DNA from: Escherichia phage St-1
Sequence record: GQ149088
Length of the DNA: 6,094 bases
Strand: one strand, 5' to 3'
Shown: piece after piece, positions 1 through 6,093 of the stretch
How positions within the stretch are numbered: the first letter of the stretch is position 1
How the letters are laid out: every line of letters begins with the position of its first letter
Notes under the pieces: model-generated
The model's database searches: none
Told to the model about the DNA's origin: nothing
Seen by the model: only the letters and a program-made list of their open reading frames with translations
Made by a program: the position numbers and the translations under genes

Positions 1-64
1 TGTTGACATTCCCTGAGCCCTTATGAGACTCTTGCTTCAACGAAATGAAGTAGGAGTCTTTTTT

Positions 65-349
65 ATGAAGCCAGCTCACCGCCTTTATCATTCTGTGCTT
101 GGTTCTTGGTTGTTTAAGTGCCCTGTTTATATCCGTTATGAGTACCTTCATCATGGTCGTCTTATCAAGGTTCGCGCCGTTCGTGACCTTTCCCCGCGTC
201 AGCAGTTGATTGCCAATCCTAAAAATTGTTTGACGTCGTTATTGCCGAGATTGACGTTACTCACCTTTCTGTCACTTGGTATGATTTTGAGGCTGAAGAG
301 TATGCCGAGTGTGATTCCGGCACTATGGAACTTCTTCTTTCTCAGGTGA
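65..349 (+). CDS. Hypothetical basic protein, spacer ORF 1; only the N-terminal part (about 65-226) looks coding
   Basis: ATG at 65 preceded by AGGAG (52-56) with 8-nt spacing. From 65 to about 226 roughly 54% of codons end in T (manual count; CGT/CTT/GTT-rich like the known genes). The ORF track starts this frame at 23, but codons 23-64 lack that bias. After about 227 the bias in this frame falls to about 22% although the frame stays open to TGA 347-349. Product begins MKPAHRLYHSVLGSWLFKCPVYIRYEYLHHGRLIKVRAVRDL. No homolog recalled. Confidence 0.35.
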   Translation: MKPAHRLYHSVLGSWLFKCPVYIRYEYLHHGRLIKVRAVRDLSPRQQLIANPKNCLTSLLPRLTLLTFLSLGMILRLKSMPSVIPALWNFFFLR

Positions 350-432
350 ATTCTGGTGAGGTTATTCGTTCTTCTGAAGATCTGTTTGTTGATGTTGATG
401 ATATGGATTGGCTTTATGAGATTGCGGAGTAA
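226..432 (+). CDS. Hypothetical highly acidic protein, spacer ORF 2; start uncertain (TTG 226, internal ATG 325, or reached by frameshift from ORF 1)
   Basis: Frame 1 is open from 226 to TAA 430-432 with about 59% T-ending codons (manual count). Product is Asp/Glu-rich, ending SSEDLFVDVDDMDWLYEIAE. No convincing Shine-Dalgarno before TTG 226 or ATG 325. An in-frame TAA at 220-222 lies immediately upstream. Confidence 0.35.
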   Translation: MFDVVIAEIDVTHLSVTWYDFEAEEYAECDSGTMELLLSQVNSGEVIRSSEDLFVDVDDMDWLYEIAE

Positions 433-435
433 ATT

Positions 436-525
436 ATGGAGACTGTTATCGGAAAATTTATTGCTCTGGCTGTTGTTGCTCTTATGCTGTATGGAATTTC
501 CTGTTTGATTCGGAGGTTCCCGTGA
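436..525 (+). CDS. Hypothetical 29-aa hydrophobic peptide with a single predicted transmembrane helix, spacer ORF 3
   Basis: ATG 436 lies 3 nt after the ORF 2 stop and is preceded by GGAG (426-429, 6-nt spacing). Product METVIGKFIALAVVALMLYGISCLIRRFP has a hydrophobic core and a basic C-terminus. About 48% T-ending codons. Stop TGA 523-525. Confidence 0.35.
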   Translation: METVIGKFIALAVVALMLYGISCLIRRFP

Positions 526-698
526 AATATTTTAGTTTGGTTGATGAACATTATGCTTATTGCCCTGAGACAAGGATTCTGCATATCACTCGTAGTCGTG
601 TTTCTGACCCTCGTTATGAGCGTCGCTTTCTTACTGATGAGGAGCATTTTGCGCTTTTGGATTGGTTAAAAAATCGCCCGACTTATATTAATTCTTGA
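522..698 (+). CDS. Hypothetical 58-aa protein, spacer ORF 4
   Basis: GTG 522 overlaps the ORF 3 stop as GTGA, the same arrangement as the A/C junction, and is preceded by GGAGG (512-516, 5-nt spacing). About 62% T-ending codons (manual count). Product MKYFSLVDEHYAYCPETRILHITRSRVSDPRYERRFLTDEEHFALLDWLKNRPTYINS. Stop TGA 696-698 falls inside the -35 box of the gene A promoter. Not in the supplied ORF track (below its length cutoff). Confidence 0.4.
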   Translation: MKYFSLVDEHYAYCPETRILHITRSRVSDPRYERRFLTDEEHFALLDWLKNRPTYINS

Positions 699-724
699 CA
701 GACCTTTAAAATACCCACTATATT
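695..724 (+). promoter_or_regulatory. Sigma70-type promoter for gene A (pA)
   Basis: Perfect -35 TTGACA (695-700), 18-nt spacer, -10 TATATT (719-724), immediately upstream of gene A. Positionally equivalent to phiX174 pA in the H-A intergenic region. Confidence 0.55.
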
Positions 725-754
725 GCCCTCGCAGGTTTACTACGAGGGCTTTTT
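725..754 (+). terminator. Intrinsic-terminator-like hairpin (T_H equivalent), also the 5-prime leader structure of the A mRNA
   Basis: GCCCTCG (725-731) pairs with CGAGGGC (743-749), a 7-bp GC-rich stem with an 11-nt loop, followed by TTTTT (750-754). The 3-prime arm contains the likely gene A Shine-Dalgarno GAGGG (745-749). phiX174 has an analogous hairpin plus T-run just before the A start. Confidence 0.5.
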
Positions 755-757
755 CGC

Positions 758-2242
758 ATGGCTACTGAAATCTTCTCTGATGTTGTTAAGGCTGTTTGGT
801 CGCACGTTACGGCCAAGCATGCTCATCTTCGTATGGCTGTTCAGGTTGATAATCGTAGCCGCCTTCTCTCTGACCTTGTTTATCAGTTGGAAAAACGTCT
901 TTCTGAAGAGACTCATTTGGATGGTGAGACTCTTGCCGTTTATGAATCTCAGACCGCTCTTCTGGAGGATCATATGGCTCTGGTTCGGAAGTGTGCTGCC
1001 CAACTTGATAATAGTAACACTATAGACCACCGTACTCCTCTGGATGCCGAATGTGTTTTTCTGTTTGAAATGATTTGCCCAGGTGTTCGCTACGGTAAAA
1101 CGTTGAATTCTCTTTGGACTAAGTATGTAGCCCAGTGGCCTGAAAAGTTGATTCGTCATGAGCTTGATATGGTCAAGCCTTTATCCTTTAAGGATGAGGT
1201 TGCTAAGTACATGGAGAAAATGCAGGAAAAAACACGCAAGAACCGCATGACTCAGAAAGTAATTAATGAGATGCGTATTGCTCACCAGAAAGGCTGGTTC
1301 TTTGTATTTGATACACTGACCCTTGCTGATGACCGTTTGCAGGCTTTTAATGAAAACCCCAATGCTCTTCGTGATTATTTTAGGACTGTTGGTCGAGCTG
1401 TTCTGCGCGCTGAAGGTCGTTCGGTTAAGGATTCCTACAACGACTGCTATCGTTATCTTTGTGTGCCGGAGTTTGGAGGTCAGCACGGCCGTCTTCATTG
1501 GCACGTTGTGCATATGGTGCGGACTCTTCCTTTGGGAAGTCACGACCCTAATTTCGGTCGCAAGGTACGTAATTATCGCCAGATTAACTCGTTCCGTGGC
1601 ATGTGGCCCTATGGCTTCACGCAACCGATAGCTGTTCGCTATCAACATGACGCTTATTCTCGTAAAGGTTGGCTGTGGCCTGTTGACAAATCAGGAAAAG
1701 CAATGCAGAGTAAGCCGTATCAGGCGGTCGCATGGTATGTGACCAAGTATGTAGCCAAGCAATCTGACCAGCGTCAGAAAGCTATTACCGAGAGACAAAA
1801 GAAATGCAAGAATCCATTAATGGCAATCTGTCTGAAGAAAGAATTTCGGGTGCGCAGCAGTCGGAAGCTCGGAATGGAGCTCCCGTCAATGGCTCACCTG
1901 AGCAACAAAGTGCTTCTGGAACTGAGCCGAATCAGCTTCGATTCCAGCCCTCTGTATCAGATAGTGAAAGAGAACGCCAAAAAGCAATTGACCTTGAACA
2001 TCGGCGCGCTGCCTTTGCACGTCATTTTGGATGTGCGCCCGGAAGTGAGAAGCATGTTGAAAATTATTCGTCGTTTGATGAAAAAGACACCCGAGTTCAA
2101 TTGGCAGAGTTCTATCGCTTCAATGACGGTCACCTTAAAAAATGGGGATATTTCTGATGAAGCACGTCAATACATTATTGATGCAGGAATTACGCCTACT
2201 GATTTGCGAGCTAAAGCGACTCAGGCTTTCGGCGGTAAGTGA
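758..2242 (+). CDS. A: Replication initiation protein A (rolling-circle HUH endonuclease)
   Basis: 494-aa ORF alignable by recall to phiX174 protein A, including FVFDTLTLADDRL, NPNALRDYFR, a GRLHWHVVH HUH-like motif and the catalytic tyrosine pair in WYVTKYVAK. It contains the conserved origin sequence and ends in TGA 2240-2242. GAGGG lies 8 nt upstream of the ATG. Confidence 0.95.
   Translation: MATEIFSDVVKAVWSHVTAKHAHLRMAVQVDNRSRLLSDLVYQLEKRLSEETHLDGETLAVYESQTALLEDHMALVRKCAAQLDNSNTIDHRTPLDAECVFLFEMICPGVRYGKTLNSLWTKYVAQWPEKLIRHELDMVKPLSFKDEVAKYMEKMQEKTRKNRMTQKVINEMRIAHQKGWFFVFDTLTLADDRLQAFNENPNALRDYFRTVGRAVLRAEGRSVKDSYNDCYRYLCVPEFGGQHGRLHWHVVHMVRTLPLGSHDPNFGRKVRNYRQINSFRGMWPYGFTQPIAVRYQHDAYSRKGWLWPVDKSGKAMQSKPYQAVAWYVTKYVAKQSDQRQKAITERQKKCKNPLMAICLKKEFRVRSSRKLGMELPSMAHLSNKVLLELSRISFDSSPLYQIVKENAKKQLTLNIGALPLHVILDVRPEVRSMLKIIRRLMKKTPEFNWQSSIASMTVTLKNGDISDEARQYIIDAGITPTDLRAKATQAFGGK
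1001..1030 (+). other. Viral (+) strand origin of rolling-circle replication; protein A nick site predicted between G1007 and A1008
   Basis: CAACTTGATAATAGTAACACTATAGACCAC differs at only 2 of 30 positions from the phiX174 origin CAACTTGATATTAATAACACTATAGACCAC as I recall it, and sits inside gene A as in phiX174 and G4. Confidence 0.85.
1804..2157 (+). CDS. B: Internal scaffolding protein B
   Basis: 117-aa ORF embedded in gene A in a different frame. The C-terminus LAEFYRFNDGHLKKWGYF matches the phiX174 B C-terminus (PAEFYRFHDAEVNTFGYF). The Shine-Dalgarno is weak. Confidence 0.9.
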   Translation: MQESINGNLSEERISGAQQSEARNGAPVNGSPEQQSASGTEPNQLRFQPSVSDSERERQKAIDLEHRRAAFARHFGCAPGSEKHVENYSSFDEKDTRVQLAEFYRFNDGHLKKWGYF

Positions 2243-2501: not shown

Positions 2502-2954
2502 ATGAATATTGTTTCTGATGTTAATTACGCTACTTCTGTCGCTGCTCTTCGTATGCTTCAGGCTAGCGCTGTTCTGGATATCACTGAGGAAGATTTCGAC
2601 TTCCTGACTGGTGATAAGATTTGGATTGCCACCGACCGCAACCGTGCGCGTCGCTGTGTGGAGGCTTGTGTTTATGGAGCGCTGGACTTTGTCGGCTATC
2701 CTCGCTTTCCTGCTCCTGTTGAGTTTATTGCTGCCGTCATTGCTTATTATGTTCATCCCGTCAACATTCAGACAGCATGCCTCGTTATGGAAGGCGCGGA
2801 GTTTAGCGAAAACATTATTAATGGCGTCGAGCGTCCGGTTAACGCCGCTGAGCTCTTCGCGTACACCCTGCGTATTAAGGCAGGATTCAAAGAAACTGTA
2901 ATTGATGCCGAGGAAAATGCTCGTCAGAAATTACGCGCAAATGGACTGAAATGA
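2502..2954 (+). CDS. D: External scaffolding protein D
   Basis: 150 aa, near-identical over long stretches to phiX174 D by recall (RARRCVEACVYG, DFVGYPRFPAPVEFIAAVIAYYVHPVNIQTAC, NGVERPV). ATG 2502 is preceded by AGGAG (2491-2495); the track's TTG 2472 start is an artefact of ORF extension. Confidence 0.95.
   Translation: MNIVSDVNYATSVAALRMLQASAVLDITEEDFDFLTGDKIWIATDRNRARRCVEACVYGALDFVGYPRFPAPVEFIAAVIAYYVHPVNIQTACLVMEGAEFSENIINGVERPVNAAELFAYTLRIKAGFKETVIDAEENARQKLRANGLK
2674..2901 (+). CDS. E: Lysis protein E (MraY inhibitor), embedded in D in the +1 frame
   Basis: ATG 2674 preceded by GGAGG (2660-2664). The 75-aa product MERWTLSAILAFLLLLSLLLPSLLIMFIPSTF matches the phiX174 E transmembrane domain, including Pro21. 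The track's GTG 2611 start is probably an over-extension. Confidence 0.85.
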   Translation: MERWTLSAILAFLLLLSLLLPSLLIMFIPSTFRQHASLWKARSLAKTLLMASSVRLTPLSSSRTPCVLRQDSKKL

Positions 2955-3065: not shown

Positions 3066-4361
3066 ATGTCTAATGTACAAACTTCCGCTGAACGTGAAAT
3101 TGTTGACCTTTCTCATCTTGCCTTTGACTGTGGCATGATTGGTCGTTTGAAAACTGTTTCATGGACTCCTGTTATTGCTGGCGATTCCTTTGAGCTTGAT
3201 GCTGTTGGCGCTTTGCGTCTTTCTCCTCTGCGTCGTGGTTTAGCTATTGACTCTAAGGTTGATTTTTTCACTTTCTATATTCCGCATCGCCATGTTTATG
3301 GTGACCAGTGGATTCAATTTATGCGTGATGGTGTTGATGCCGCACCACTCCCTTCCGTTACTACTACTCAGTATCCGGATGACGCTGGTTATGTTGGTAC
3401 TATTGTTCCTAAGAGCAACCGTATTCCTAAGTTTTTGCATCAGTCTTATCTGAATATTTATAATAACTATTTCCGTGCGCCGTGGATGCCTGAGCGTACT
3501 GAAGCTAATCCTTCAAATTTAGACCGTGATGATTCTCGCTATGGATTCCGTTGCTGCCATCTTAAAACTATTTGGTCTGCTCCTCTTCCTCCGGAAACTA
3601 AGCTCGCTGAGCAAATGGGCATTGAAAGCAATTCCATTGATATTATGGGTTTGCAGGCCGCTTATGCGCAGCTTCATACTGAGCAGGAGCGTACTTATTT
3701 CATGCAGCGTTATCGTGATGTTATCTCCAGCTTTGGCGGTTCAACCTCCTATGATGCCGATAACCGACCGTTGCTTGTTATGCACACCGATTTCTGGGCT
3801 TCCGGTTACGACGTTGACGGTACCGACCAATCTTCCCTCGGACAGTTTTCGGGTCGAGTCCAACAGACGTTTAAACACTCAGTGCCTCGATTCTTCGTGC
3901 CGGAGCATGGTGTCATGATGACTTTGATGCTGGTTCGCTTCCCGCCTATCAGTCCTTTGGAGCATCATTATCTTGTTGGTCGTAATAATTTGACTTATAC
4001 CGACCTTGCGGGTGACCCGGCTTTGATTGGTAATTTGCCGCCACGTGAGATTTCTTATCAGGATCTTTTCCGTGATGGTCGTCCGGGCATTAAGATTAAG
4101 GTTGCCGAGTCTATCTGGTATCGTACTCATCCGGATTATGTTAACTACAAGTATCAGTTACTTGAAGGTTTTCCGTTCCTTGATGATGCGCCCGGTACGA
4201 CTAGTGGTGATGACCTTCAGAAGGCTATTCTCATTGACCATAATGACTATAATGCCTGTTTCCAGTCTCAGCAGTTGCTTCAGTGGAATAATCAGGCTCG
4301 TTATAATGTCAATGTTTATCGTCATATTCCTACTGTTCGTGATTCTATTATGACCTCTTGA
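3066..4361 (+). CDS. F: Major capsid protein F
   Basis: 431 aa, alignable along its whole length to phiX174 F by recall (MSNVQTSAER, ALRLSPLRRGLAIDS, YGFRCCHLK, SIDIMGLQAAYA, QFSGRVQQT.KHSVPRFFVPEHG, TRDSIMTS). AAGGA lies 7 nt upstream. Confidence 0.97.
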   Translation: MSNVQTSAEREIVDLSHLAFDCGMIGRLKTVSWTPVIAGDSFELDAVGALRLSPLRRGLAIDSKVDFFTFYIPHRHVYGDQWIQFMRDGVDAAPLPSVTTTQYPDDAGYVGTIVPKSNRIPKFLHQSYLNIYNNYFRAPWMPERTEANPSNLDRDDSRYGFRCCHLKTIWSAPLPPETKLAEQMGIESNSIDIMGLQAAYAQLHTEQERTYFMQRYRDVISSFGGSTSYDADNRPLLVMHTDFWASGYDVDGTDQSSLGQFSGRVQQTFKHSVPRFFVPEHGVMMTLMLVRFPPISPLEHHYLVGRNNLTYTDLAGDPALIGNLPPREISYQDLFRDGRPGIKIKVAESIWYRTHPDYVNYKYQLLEGFPFLDDAPGTTSGDDLQKAILIDHNDYNACFQSQQLLQWNNQARYNVNVYRHIPTVRDSIMTS

Positions 4362-4958: not shown

Positions 4959-5041
4959 AAGGCCGCCGCACTCCCGGTTATGTGTCTGCCCAGTGTAGGG
5001 CGGACCGAGCCGTACGGAGATACCCGATAAACTAGGAACGT

Positions 5042-5068
5042 GGAAGGCGTTAGCCGCCTTCCCTCCTG
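5042..5068 (+). promoter_or_regulatory. Candidate complementary (-) strand origin element: hairpin plus adjacent CTG primase start site
   Basis: GGAAGGCG (5042-5049) pairs with CGCCTTCC (5055-5062), a perfect 8-bp stem with loop TTAGC, followed by CTG at 5066-5068, within a 136-nt GC-rich G-H intergenic region. DnaG-dependent origins of G4-type phages are hairpins with a CTG initiation site. Confidence 0.4.
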
Positions 5069-5094
5069 CTAAGCCCAAAAAAGGAGCTTACAAT

Positions 5095-6093
5095 ATGCTT
5101 GGAAGTATCATTGGAGGTATTGGCTCATCGCTGCTCGGAGGACTTGCTTCCGGCGGTATCTCCAGTCTCCTTAATAAAATGTTTAGTAAAATGCCAGAAC
5201 ACGCCGCCTCTTCTGCTGGCCTTACTAATGGTCAAGGAACTATTGGTATGGATACTGACGCTGGCATTCAGTCTGCTATTCAGGGCTCTAATGTTCCTCC
5301 TGCTGGTCAATTGCCTGCCTCTAATACCTCTGGTGTTATGGCTGATGCTGGTAATATGATTCGTAATGCTGGCAGAGCTTTGCTTGACGGTACGATTCAG
5401 GCCGGTTCTGACAAGGTTAAAGAGGCTCTTATTGATAAGTTGGTTGGAGGTAATGATGCTAAAGACCGAGGAAAGGCAACCCGTGATTACTTGGCAGCGG
5501 CTTTCCCTGAGCTCAACCCATGGGAACGTGCTGGAGCTGATGCTTCCACTGCCGGGTTAGAGTCTTCCGCTCAGAATCAACAAAAAGAGATGCTTAAAAT
5601 GCAACTGGATAACCAGAAGGATATTGCCAAGATGCAGATGAATAACAATTTGCAGATTGCTGGCATTCAGTCCGCTACATCTCGCCAGAATACGAAGGAT
5701 TCTGTTTATGCCCAGAATGAGATGCTTCAGTATAATCAACGTGAGTCGCAGGCACGCGTTGCGTCCATCCTCGCCAACACTGACCTTACGACTAAGCAGG
5801 CCACCCATGAAATTATGAGGATGGCTCTTACCCGCGCTCAGGAGACTGGTCAGCATTTGACTAACTCTCAGATTATGGCTTTGGAGAAAAAGGTTTATGC
5901 AGAAATTGGCAAAATTCATCAAGATACTCAAAATTCTCGCTATGGTAGCTCTCAAGTTACTGCCGCAGCGAAAGACGTTACGAATATGATTACTGACGCC
6001 TCTTCAGGCTTTGCTGATTGGGCCTCTCAGCAGTGGAATTCATTCTTTAAGGATGGTAAGTCTGATGGTATTCCTCTCAATACCAGAAAATAA
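5095..6093 (+). CDS. H: Minor spike / DNA pilot protein H
   Basis: 332 aa with a Gly-rich N-terminus (GGIGSSLLGG) and long stretches matching phiX174 H by recall (AGI.SAIQGSNVP, TRDYLAAAFPELN.WERAGADAS, LDNQK.IA.MQ, IAGIQSATSRQNTKD.VYAQNEML, NSRYGSS). AGGAG lies 8 nt upstream. Stop TAA 6091-6093. Confidence 0.95.
   Translation: MLGSIIGGIGSSLLGGLASGGISSLLNKMFSKMPEHAASSAGLTNGQGTIGMDTDAGIQSAIQGSNVPPAGQLPASNTSGVMADAGNMIRNAGRALLDGTIQAGSDKVKEALIDKLVGGNDAKDRGKATRDYLAAAFPELNPWERAGADASTAGLESSAQNQQKEMLKMQLDNQKDIAKMQMNNNLQIAGIQSATSRQNTKDSVYAQNEMLQYNQRESQARVASILANTDLTTKQATHEIMRMALTRAQETGQHLTNSQIMALEKKVYAEIGKIHQDTQNSRYGSSQVTAAAKDVTNMITDASSGFADWASQQWNSFFKDGKSDGIPLNTRK

Follow-up and report, generated by a model that had tools for sequence, protein, structure and literature searches.

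A small hydrophobic reading frame between genes H and A of alpha3-like microviruses is probably a membrane-peptide gene expressed together with its downstream neighbour

The phiX174-type phages serve as the textbook example of a genome that is understood in full. One strand is transcribed, with leaky terminators, and they have a primase-dependent complementary-strand origin that in G4 is located in the F-G spacer. Among the described systems that come closest to the locus treated here, the small enterobacterial inner-membrane proteins KdpF (29 aa), PmrR (29 aa), AcrZ, MgtS and CydX bind larger membrane proteins and tune them, and genes VII and IX of the filamentous ssDNA phages encode hydrophobic proteins of 33 and 32 aa that are made by coupled translation and cap the virion; no such cap-like protein is known in alpha3 virions. 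Within the microviruses, PMC2935103 attributes to Rokyta et al. 2006 five conserved reading frames without assigned function in the alpha3-like/WA13-like clade, and an additional region that holds putative genes has been described in phage ST-1 (Chantranupong and Heineman, PMC3324380). The reading frame analysed below, ORF2, shares locus, clade and status (conserved frames between H and A) with these extra putative genes, as the two papers describe them (PMC2935103, PMC3324380). As an open reading frame ORF2 is already on record: its 29-aa orthologue in phage Lilleven, which differs by one residue, is annotated as hypothetical protein QBZ71503.1, and the alpha3 record M25640, from the 1980s, carries ribosome_binding_site features at the positions of ORF2 and of the frames on either side of it, ORF1 and ORF3. 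That annotators arrived at this frame independently speaks for ORF2 as a gene. No experimental work on ORF1, ORF2 or ORF3 was found in the literature searched, in which Rokyta et al. 2006 is known through the papers that cite it. Added here are an analysis of selection on ORF2, its reading as a membrane helix, two coupling solutions, a fusion of ORF2 with ORF3, and the delimitation of an orphan module to one genus.

The sequence analysed (hereafter the window) is the whole 6,094-nt stretch of record GQ149088, Escherichia phage ST-1. Its numbering fits the mutations published for ST-1 (PMC3324380): the expected base stands at each of the four positions given there, A at nt 5540 (H codon 149, D), T at nt 1387 (A codon 210, T), T at nt 807 (a Val codon) and G at nt 3869, and the residue agrees at three of them, the exception being nt 3869 in F, where the window encodes Thr268 and not the published V210. 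In its ORF map the genes run A, B, K, C, D, E, J, F, G, H, as in a phiX174-type microvirus, and its first 757 bases form a long H-A spacer that holds three consecutive frames, ORF1-ORF2-ORF3 (Table 1). A BLAST search with nucleotides 1-760 gave matches in 25 records, all of them alpha3-like microviruses (genus Alphatrevirus), with alpha3 itself as the top match at 93%. ORF2 is present in 25/25 alpha3-like records and in none other of 50,697 phage records (blastn; tblastn at E<=10), and it occupies the same place, on the coding strand between H and A, in metagenomic contigs as well as in 13 GenBank relatives. For ORF1 and ORF3, the homologues found were all on contigs of microvirus size (~6 kb) or shorter. 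The phiX174 and G4 clades lack the ORF1-3 module, which is therefore accessory.

Table 1. Coordinates of the H-A spacer features and of the genes referred to in the text, numbered from the first base of the window.
Feature	Position	Strand	Description
Long imperfect hairpin, then T-run	25..64	+	Directly 3' of gene H stop; terminator-like
ORF1	65..432	+	122 codons in all relatives; split here into 65..349 + 226..432
GGAG Shine-Dalgarno of ORF2	426..429	+	6 nt before ATG; inside last ORF1 codons
ORF2	436..525	+	29 codons; hydrophobic, predicted single-helix peptide METVIGKFIALAVVALMLYGISCLIRRFP
GGAGG Shine-Dalgarno of ORF3	512..516	+	Encoded in ORF2 codons 26-27 (CGG AGG)
ORF3	522..698	+	58 codons; GTG start 522-524 overlaps ORF2 TGA (GTGA)
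Sigma-70 promoter-like site	695..724	+	TTGACA, 18 nt, TATATT; 11/12; upstream of gene A
GC-rich hairpin + T-run	725..754	+	Directly before gene A ATG; -15.8 kcal/mol, z = -4.9
Gene A	758..2242	+	ORF map; ATG at 758
Gene E (lysis)	2674..2901		Intact; 75 aa; embedded in gene D
Gene H	5095..6093	+	ORF map; window linearised just 3' of H

The hairpin at 25-64 includes the ORF1 Shine-Dalgarno sequence (AGGAG) within its 3' arm. Its stem is kept in the relatives and in a divergent contig, L041, in which the T-run is missing, and the structure could be a leaky terminator, a translational gate for ORF1, or both. At the other end of the spacer the -35 hexamer of the promoter-like site overlaps the ORF3 stop, and the GC-rich hairpin that follows would terminate transcripts reading through H and ORF1-3. 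Transcripts from the promoter-like site would probably begin within this hairpin, so that only upstream transcripts would be stopped by it. Since one-strand transcription with leaky terminators is known for these phages, we infer that the late transcription unit has ORF1-3 at its 3' end. A consensus scan of the - strand of 1-800, which a weak promoter could escape, found no promoter-like site for an antisense RNA. Elsewhere in the window, the spacer between G and H (4959-5094) shows 80% identity with the one that separates F from G in G4-like phages (ID52 3851-3983); it is presumably the primase-dependent complementary-strand origin, placed one gene further along than in G4.

A preliminary description of the window had read ORF2 as the gene of a translationally coupled single-transmembrane peptide, and the local signals that it listed are all present: a GGAG ribosome-binding site at 426-429, a start 3 nt past the upstream stop (TAA 430-432, spacer 433-435, ATG 436), and a stop overlapped by the GTG of the next frame (TGA 523-525 against GTG 522-524), which is the 58-codon ORF3 (522-698) with its own GGAGG at 512-516. 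Among the 37 tabulated copies, 34 have GGAG before ORF2 and 3 have GGGG or GGAA. In the window the frame that ends at 432 opens no earlier than TTG 226, since ORF1 is broken by the loss of 1 nt between 228 and 229. The equivalent frame has 122 codons in 13/13 GenBank relatives, and its intact form lies at 66-434 in L005; the window lacks one C (AAAAATTG^TTTGACG), which is present in all 13 of these relatives and at every other locus. The deletion allele was found nowhere in IMG/VR or in the other loci examined, and the window's G protein has no exact match on record. The deletion is either a private ST-1 mutation or an error in the deposited sequence. Of the proposed translational coupling, the geometry is conserved in two independent sequence forms (see below), but coupling from ORF1 into ORF2 is compromised by the frameshift and may be inoperative in the window.

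We assembled 38 copies of ORF2 from GenBank, IMG/VR, metagenomes and read-archive assemblies, amounting to 24 distinct nucleotide sequences and about 19 peptides, and took extra peptide variants from a protein collection. Conservation among relatives had been set beforehand as a check on the preliminary description, and ORF2 is intact in 38/38 copies, including two genomes in which the gene caller missed it and the Shine-Dalgarno sequence is weakened; no disrupted ORF2 was seen. This intactness alone is not beyond chance, the probability that no stop would arise being about 0.43 given ~26 substitution events. Nor is hydrophobicity alone: the + strand is 31.6% T, and 9 of its 22 small ORFs meet the same hydrophobicity criterion as ORF2, so that what had been taken as an informative sign is common by chance in this T-rich genome.

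The manner in which ORF2 varies is more telling. Across the 24 distinct sequences the variable columns of codons 2-21 fall 9/1/9 on the three codon positions (Fisher p=0.0013), synonymous and non-synonymous events in these codons stand at 10:10 where ~28-31% synonymous would be expected (p 0.03-0.06), and the replacements are exclusively I/V, F/L, A/V, A/S or M/I, with a mean |dKD| of 1.11 vs 3.03 for random ones (p ~0.002). The length of the core is fixed, with no indels. Pairwise pN/pS is 0.34-0.41, and the other two + frames have stops or a pN/pS of 3.7; this signal comes from ~20 substitution events only, and at ~0.35 the constraint is weaker than that on the N-terminal half of ORF1 and on ORF3 (0.10). 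The overlapping frame with the high ratio (+2; 356-508, 50 codons) is open in all relatives only because its third position coincides with the T at the second position of ORF2 codons, and no codon of the form NNT is a stop; it was rejected as a selected frame on its ratio, and the remaining alternative frames on their stops. In MG945254 a longer version of the 356-508 ORF carries the label 'similar to hypothetical protein'.

Synonymous divergence among close relatives is lower in ORF2 (0.12-0.14) than in the neighbouring ORFs (0.31-0.45), which leaves room for some nucleotide-level constraint. That worry is answered by contig L041, which was reached through an exhaustive HMMER search with an ORF1 profile and carries one distant ORF1 homologue (36% identical to alpha3 ORF1); its A and H are 80% and 85% identical to those of the window, and its ORF3 97%. 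In an 89-nt gap left empty by the gene caller L041 encodes METVIGKFIALAIVALMLYGIYVTINRILK. Over codons 1-21 five synonymous changes and a single V-to-I replacement set it apart from the window; synonymous positions have drifted with the peptide otherwise unchanged, which argues that the peptide is held and not the nucleotides. We regard this as the strongest single comparison bearing on selection. As judged by substitution pattern, these results show purifying selection on the ORF2 frame for a predicted hydrophobic helix. What upholds the earlier proposal of a single-transmembrane peptide gene is codon periodicity, conservative replacement and retention in a divergent relative, and not hydrophobicity as such. 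We conclude that ORF2 is probably a genuine protein-coding gene, the middle one of a three-gene accessory module restricted to alpha3-like microviruses (Alphatrevirus), and that its peptide is probably made together with ORF3.

The core of the peptide, residues 1-21 (METVIGKFIALA[V/I]VALMLYGI), is near-fixed, and the variable positions 22-30 have either an ...RRFP form or an ...[SDGN]R[TSI]L[KR] form. Arg27 (AGG) is invariant; it is doubly constrained because AGG is also part of the Shine-Dalgarno sequence of ORF3, which may be what holds it, rather than peptide function. Residues 9-25 (17 residues) have a mean KD of 2.61, with K7 on one side and R23/R26/R27 on the other, and by size (<~50 residues), hydrophobic stretch and charged flanks ORF2 fits the description of a small single-pass membrane peptide. 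Residue 23 is Arg in most relatives (Cys in the window); this brings the uninterrupted hydrophobic run down to 15 residues, with which the ends of the helix would need snorkelling. The positive-inside rule predicts an N-out, C-in topology. We rejected a lipoprotein reading: judged by the pattern [LVI][ASTVI][GAS]C after a signal-like helix, ORF2 has no lipobox, the window having G-I-S-C23 with Gly at -3, and Cys23 is not conserved.

Nothing significant was returned for ORF1-3 by scans of Pfam, PHROGs, PADLOC and NCBIfam, and no defence or anti-defence family matches them. Two PHROG matches to ORF2 (E 0.023 and 0.15) were dismissed as hydrophobic-segment noise, and a PDB sequence search with ORF2 gave no match. 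None of the type I toxin families TisB, Hok, Ldr, Ibs and ShoB was matched by ORF2 in Pfam, NCBIfam or PADLOC at E<=1. These searches gave no homologue of known function that could support the modulator roles, such as lysis timing or exclusion, mentioned in the preliminary description. The possibility that ORF2 is a form of microvirus protein E (Pfam Microvir_lysis) was also rejected, since there is no Pfam hit at E<=1 and the local alignment to the window's E is no better than shuffles, scoring below their mean; furthermore, ORF2 is not nested in any gene, unlike E in gene D. The preliminary description was therefore right to separate ORF2 from the intact lysis gene.

Of the neighbours, ORF1 consists of a conserved, basic N-terminal half (pI 10.1; pN/pS 0.105) and a hypervariable, very acidic C-terminal half (pI 4.05; 18 D+E vs 1 K+R; pN/pS 0.40), a pattern that an arms-race or mimic-type protein might show. 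Two 154-aa proteins, P0027 and P0028, encoded on contigs of ~6.2-6.3 kb, have an ORF1 with an acidic N-terminal extension of 32-34 residues (MKPLTSSEI...). ORF3 is the best-conserved protein of the module (pN/pS 0.10), and its 97% identity in L041 compares with 80-85% for A and H. With pN/pS of 0.10, the ORF1 N-terminal half and ORF3 clearly have the character of genes. AlphaFold (AF2) models reached a pLDDT of 90.5, a confident model, for ORF1 and 75.5 for ORF3; the former has no structural match in PDB or BFVD besides its own orthologue, and for the latter no fold match and no family were found.

The ORF1 stop and the ORF2 start are 3 nt apart, and 0 nt apart in L041. One group of relatives has the ORF2 stop and the ORF3 start overlapping as GTGA and the other group has them overlapping as ATGA; ID32 has one base between them (TGAAATG) and the peptide is kept. 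By these comparisons the ORF2 stop is consistently held on or beside the ORF3 start, and that this arrangement persists although the sequences differ suggests selection for producing ORF2 and ORF3 jointly. A programmed -1 frameshift from ORF2 into ORF3 was rejected, there being no slippery heptamer at TTCCCGTGA and the two ORFs being kept apart in ID32. In contig L042 (298-534; ENA ERZ13405072 NODE_196078) a clean 26-nt deletion, corresponding to about 509-534 of the window, lets residues 1-22 of ORF2 continue in frame into ORF3 at about its residue 5, giving a 78-aa product (P0003). This fusion agrees with a C-in topology and with ORF2 and ORF3 being partners; it was found on a single contig of 761 nt at ~2x coverage, and one random deletion in three would likewise be in frame.

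Might ORF2 be translated and its product be irrelevant, its role being to bring ribosomes to the ORF3 start and to open the RNA over the Shine-Dalgarno sequence and GUG, with hydrophobicity a by-product of T-rich sequence? The conserved stop/start overlap, the weak GUG start of ORF3 in the RRFP group and the stronger constraint on ORF3 than on ORF2 all speak for this, as do the frequency of chance hydrophobic ORFs in this strand and the fact that residues 26-27 are set by the Shine-Dalgarno sequence of ORF3; in addition, a 9-bp hairpin (493-501 with 512-520) buries the ORF3 GGAGG in the window and in some relatives. However, in the ATGA group, where ORF3 has an AUG start and its own Shine-Dalgarno sequence, that hairpin is weak or changes register, and ID32 parts the stop from the start yet retains the peptide. 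A pure spacer should moreover accept any sense codon, yet second positions are near-invariant, replacements conserve hydropathy, and the core is of constant length in all 24 sequences. We therefore think it unlikely that ORF2 serves ORF3 by its translation alone. A second view holds that ORF2 is not a gene, and that what is conserved there is a DNA or RNA element (an origin, a packaging or regulatory structure, or an mRNA 3' region) with the frame open by chance. Nucleotides 436-495 are indeed among the better-conserved 60-nt windows (mean pairwise identity 0.963 vs a genome mean of 0.859), but this only equals the conservation of gene A and is hence unexceptional. Low synonymous divergence among close relatives and the appreciable chance of the frame staying open also favour an element, but the synonymous changes that pile up in distant L041 while the peptide is held, and a three-base periodicity of conservation exactly in the ORF2 frame, do not. 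The region folds no better than shuffles (DNA z +0.5, RNA z +1.7), an Rfam search of it gave no family, and the complementary-strand origin maps by homology with the G4-like F-G spacer to the G-H spacer. A non-coding element is in our judgement very improbable.

The remaining rival accepts the peptide and gives it a different task, as a second membrane-damaging or lysis-type product (a type I toxin or a single-gene lysis protein) that depolarises or permeabilises the inner membrane or blocks a cell-wall precursor step, and so helps or times lysis by E. In size and architecture ORF2 is like the TisB-class toxins and the shortest single-gene lysis proteins, and its position downstream of H suggests late expression. 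The lysis timing of ST-1 changed in experimental evolution without changes in gene E, but the adaptive mutations were in A, F and H, outside the ORF2 region, and E alone suffices for lysis in phiX174-type phages (PMC3324380). In sequence ORF2 resembles neither E nor any family of toxins, holins or lysis proteins, and tight coupling to a soluble, highly conserved partner is atypical of such toxins. We consider a lysis-type function quite unlikely.

If, as we prefer, ORF2 is a peptide gene expressed with ORF3, the following sequence of events can be proposed. ORF2 would be transcribed as part of the late polycistronic mRNA that extends past H, with its own GGAG directing translation. Because it is no longer than 29-30 residues, the peptide would leave the ribosome before being inserted into the inner membrane as one helix (~residues 4-25), with its N-terminus out and its Arg-rich C-terminal tail in the cytoplasm. 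Ribosomes that terminate at the ORF2 UGA would re-initiate at the ORF3 GUG/AUG that overlaps it; the two products would in this way be made together, and the peptide would most likely work at the membrane's cytoplasmic face along with the small, soluble protein encoded by ORF3. As to specific roles, all of which we put forward only weakly, a block of a membrane step in superinfection or the modulation of a host inner-membrane protein ranks above a tuning of lysis. A more elaborate proposal, possible but rather doubtful, is that ORF2 and ORF3 make up an accessory device of two parts, tethered to the membrane, which originated de novo in the alpha3-like lineage out of T-rich non-coding DNA. The peptide would anchor or activate the 58-aa protein at the inner membrane, and the hypervariable acidic ORF1 would be a third, arms-race component. 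Such a device, if real, would give these phages a capability that phiX174 lacks, for example superinfection exclusion at DNA entry or growth on K-12/B hosts.

The finding overturns nothing known, and it offers a concrete and cheap experimental target in a 6-kb genome. The alpha3-like phages have ~700 extra bases and three conserved genes beyond the textbook phiX174 set; ORF2 could show the form that an accessory function takes among the smallest DNA phages, and may exemplify a micro-protein born from T-rich sequence.

Set beside the known systems, ORF2 resembles protein E in being small, in its predicted N-terminal transmembrane helix and in belonging to the same kind of phage; E, however, is a separate gene (2674-2901) inside gene D, with a product of 75 aa that has no similarity to ORF2. 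With genes VII and IX of the filamentous phages ORF2 shares the character of a tiny hydrophobic ssDNA-phage protein encoded in a tightly packed run with overlapping stop and start codons. Those genes have no sequence similarity to ORF2 and belong to phages that assemble in the membrane, whereas microviruses assemble in the cytoplasm. The KdpF, PmrR, AcrZ, MgtS and CydX group differs from ORF2 in sequence (no Pfam/NCBIfam hit), ORF2 being phage-encoded, and in partner, which for that group is a membrane complex and for which the sole visible candidate here is a soluble 58-aa protein. These proteins are nevertheless like ORF2 in their size, their one hydrophobic helix (predicted for ORF2), their short charged flanks and their probable post-translational insertion, as well as in having a gene that lies beside or within the operon of the partner.
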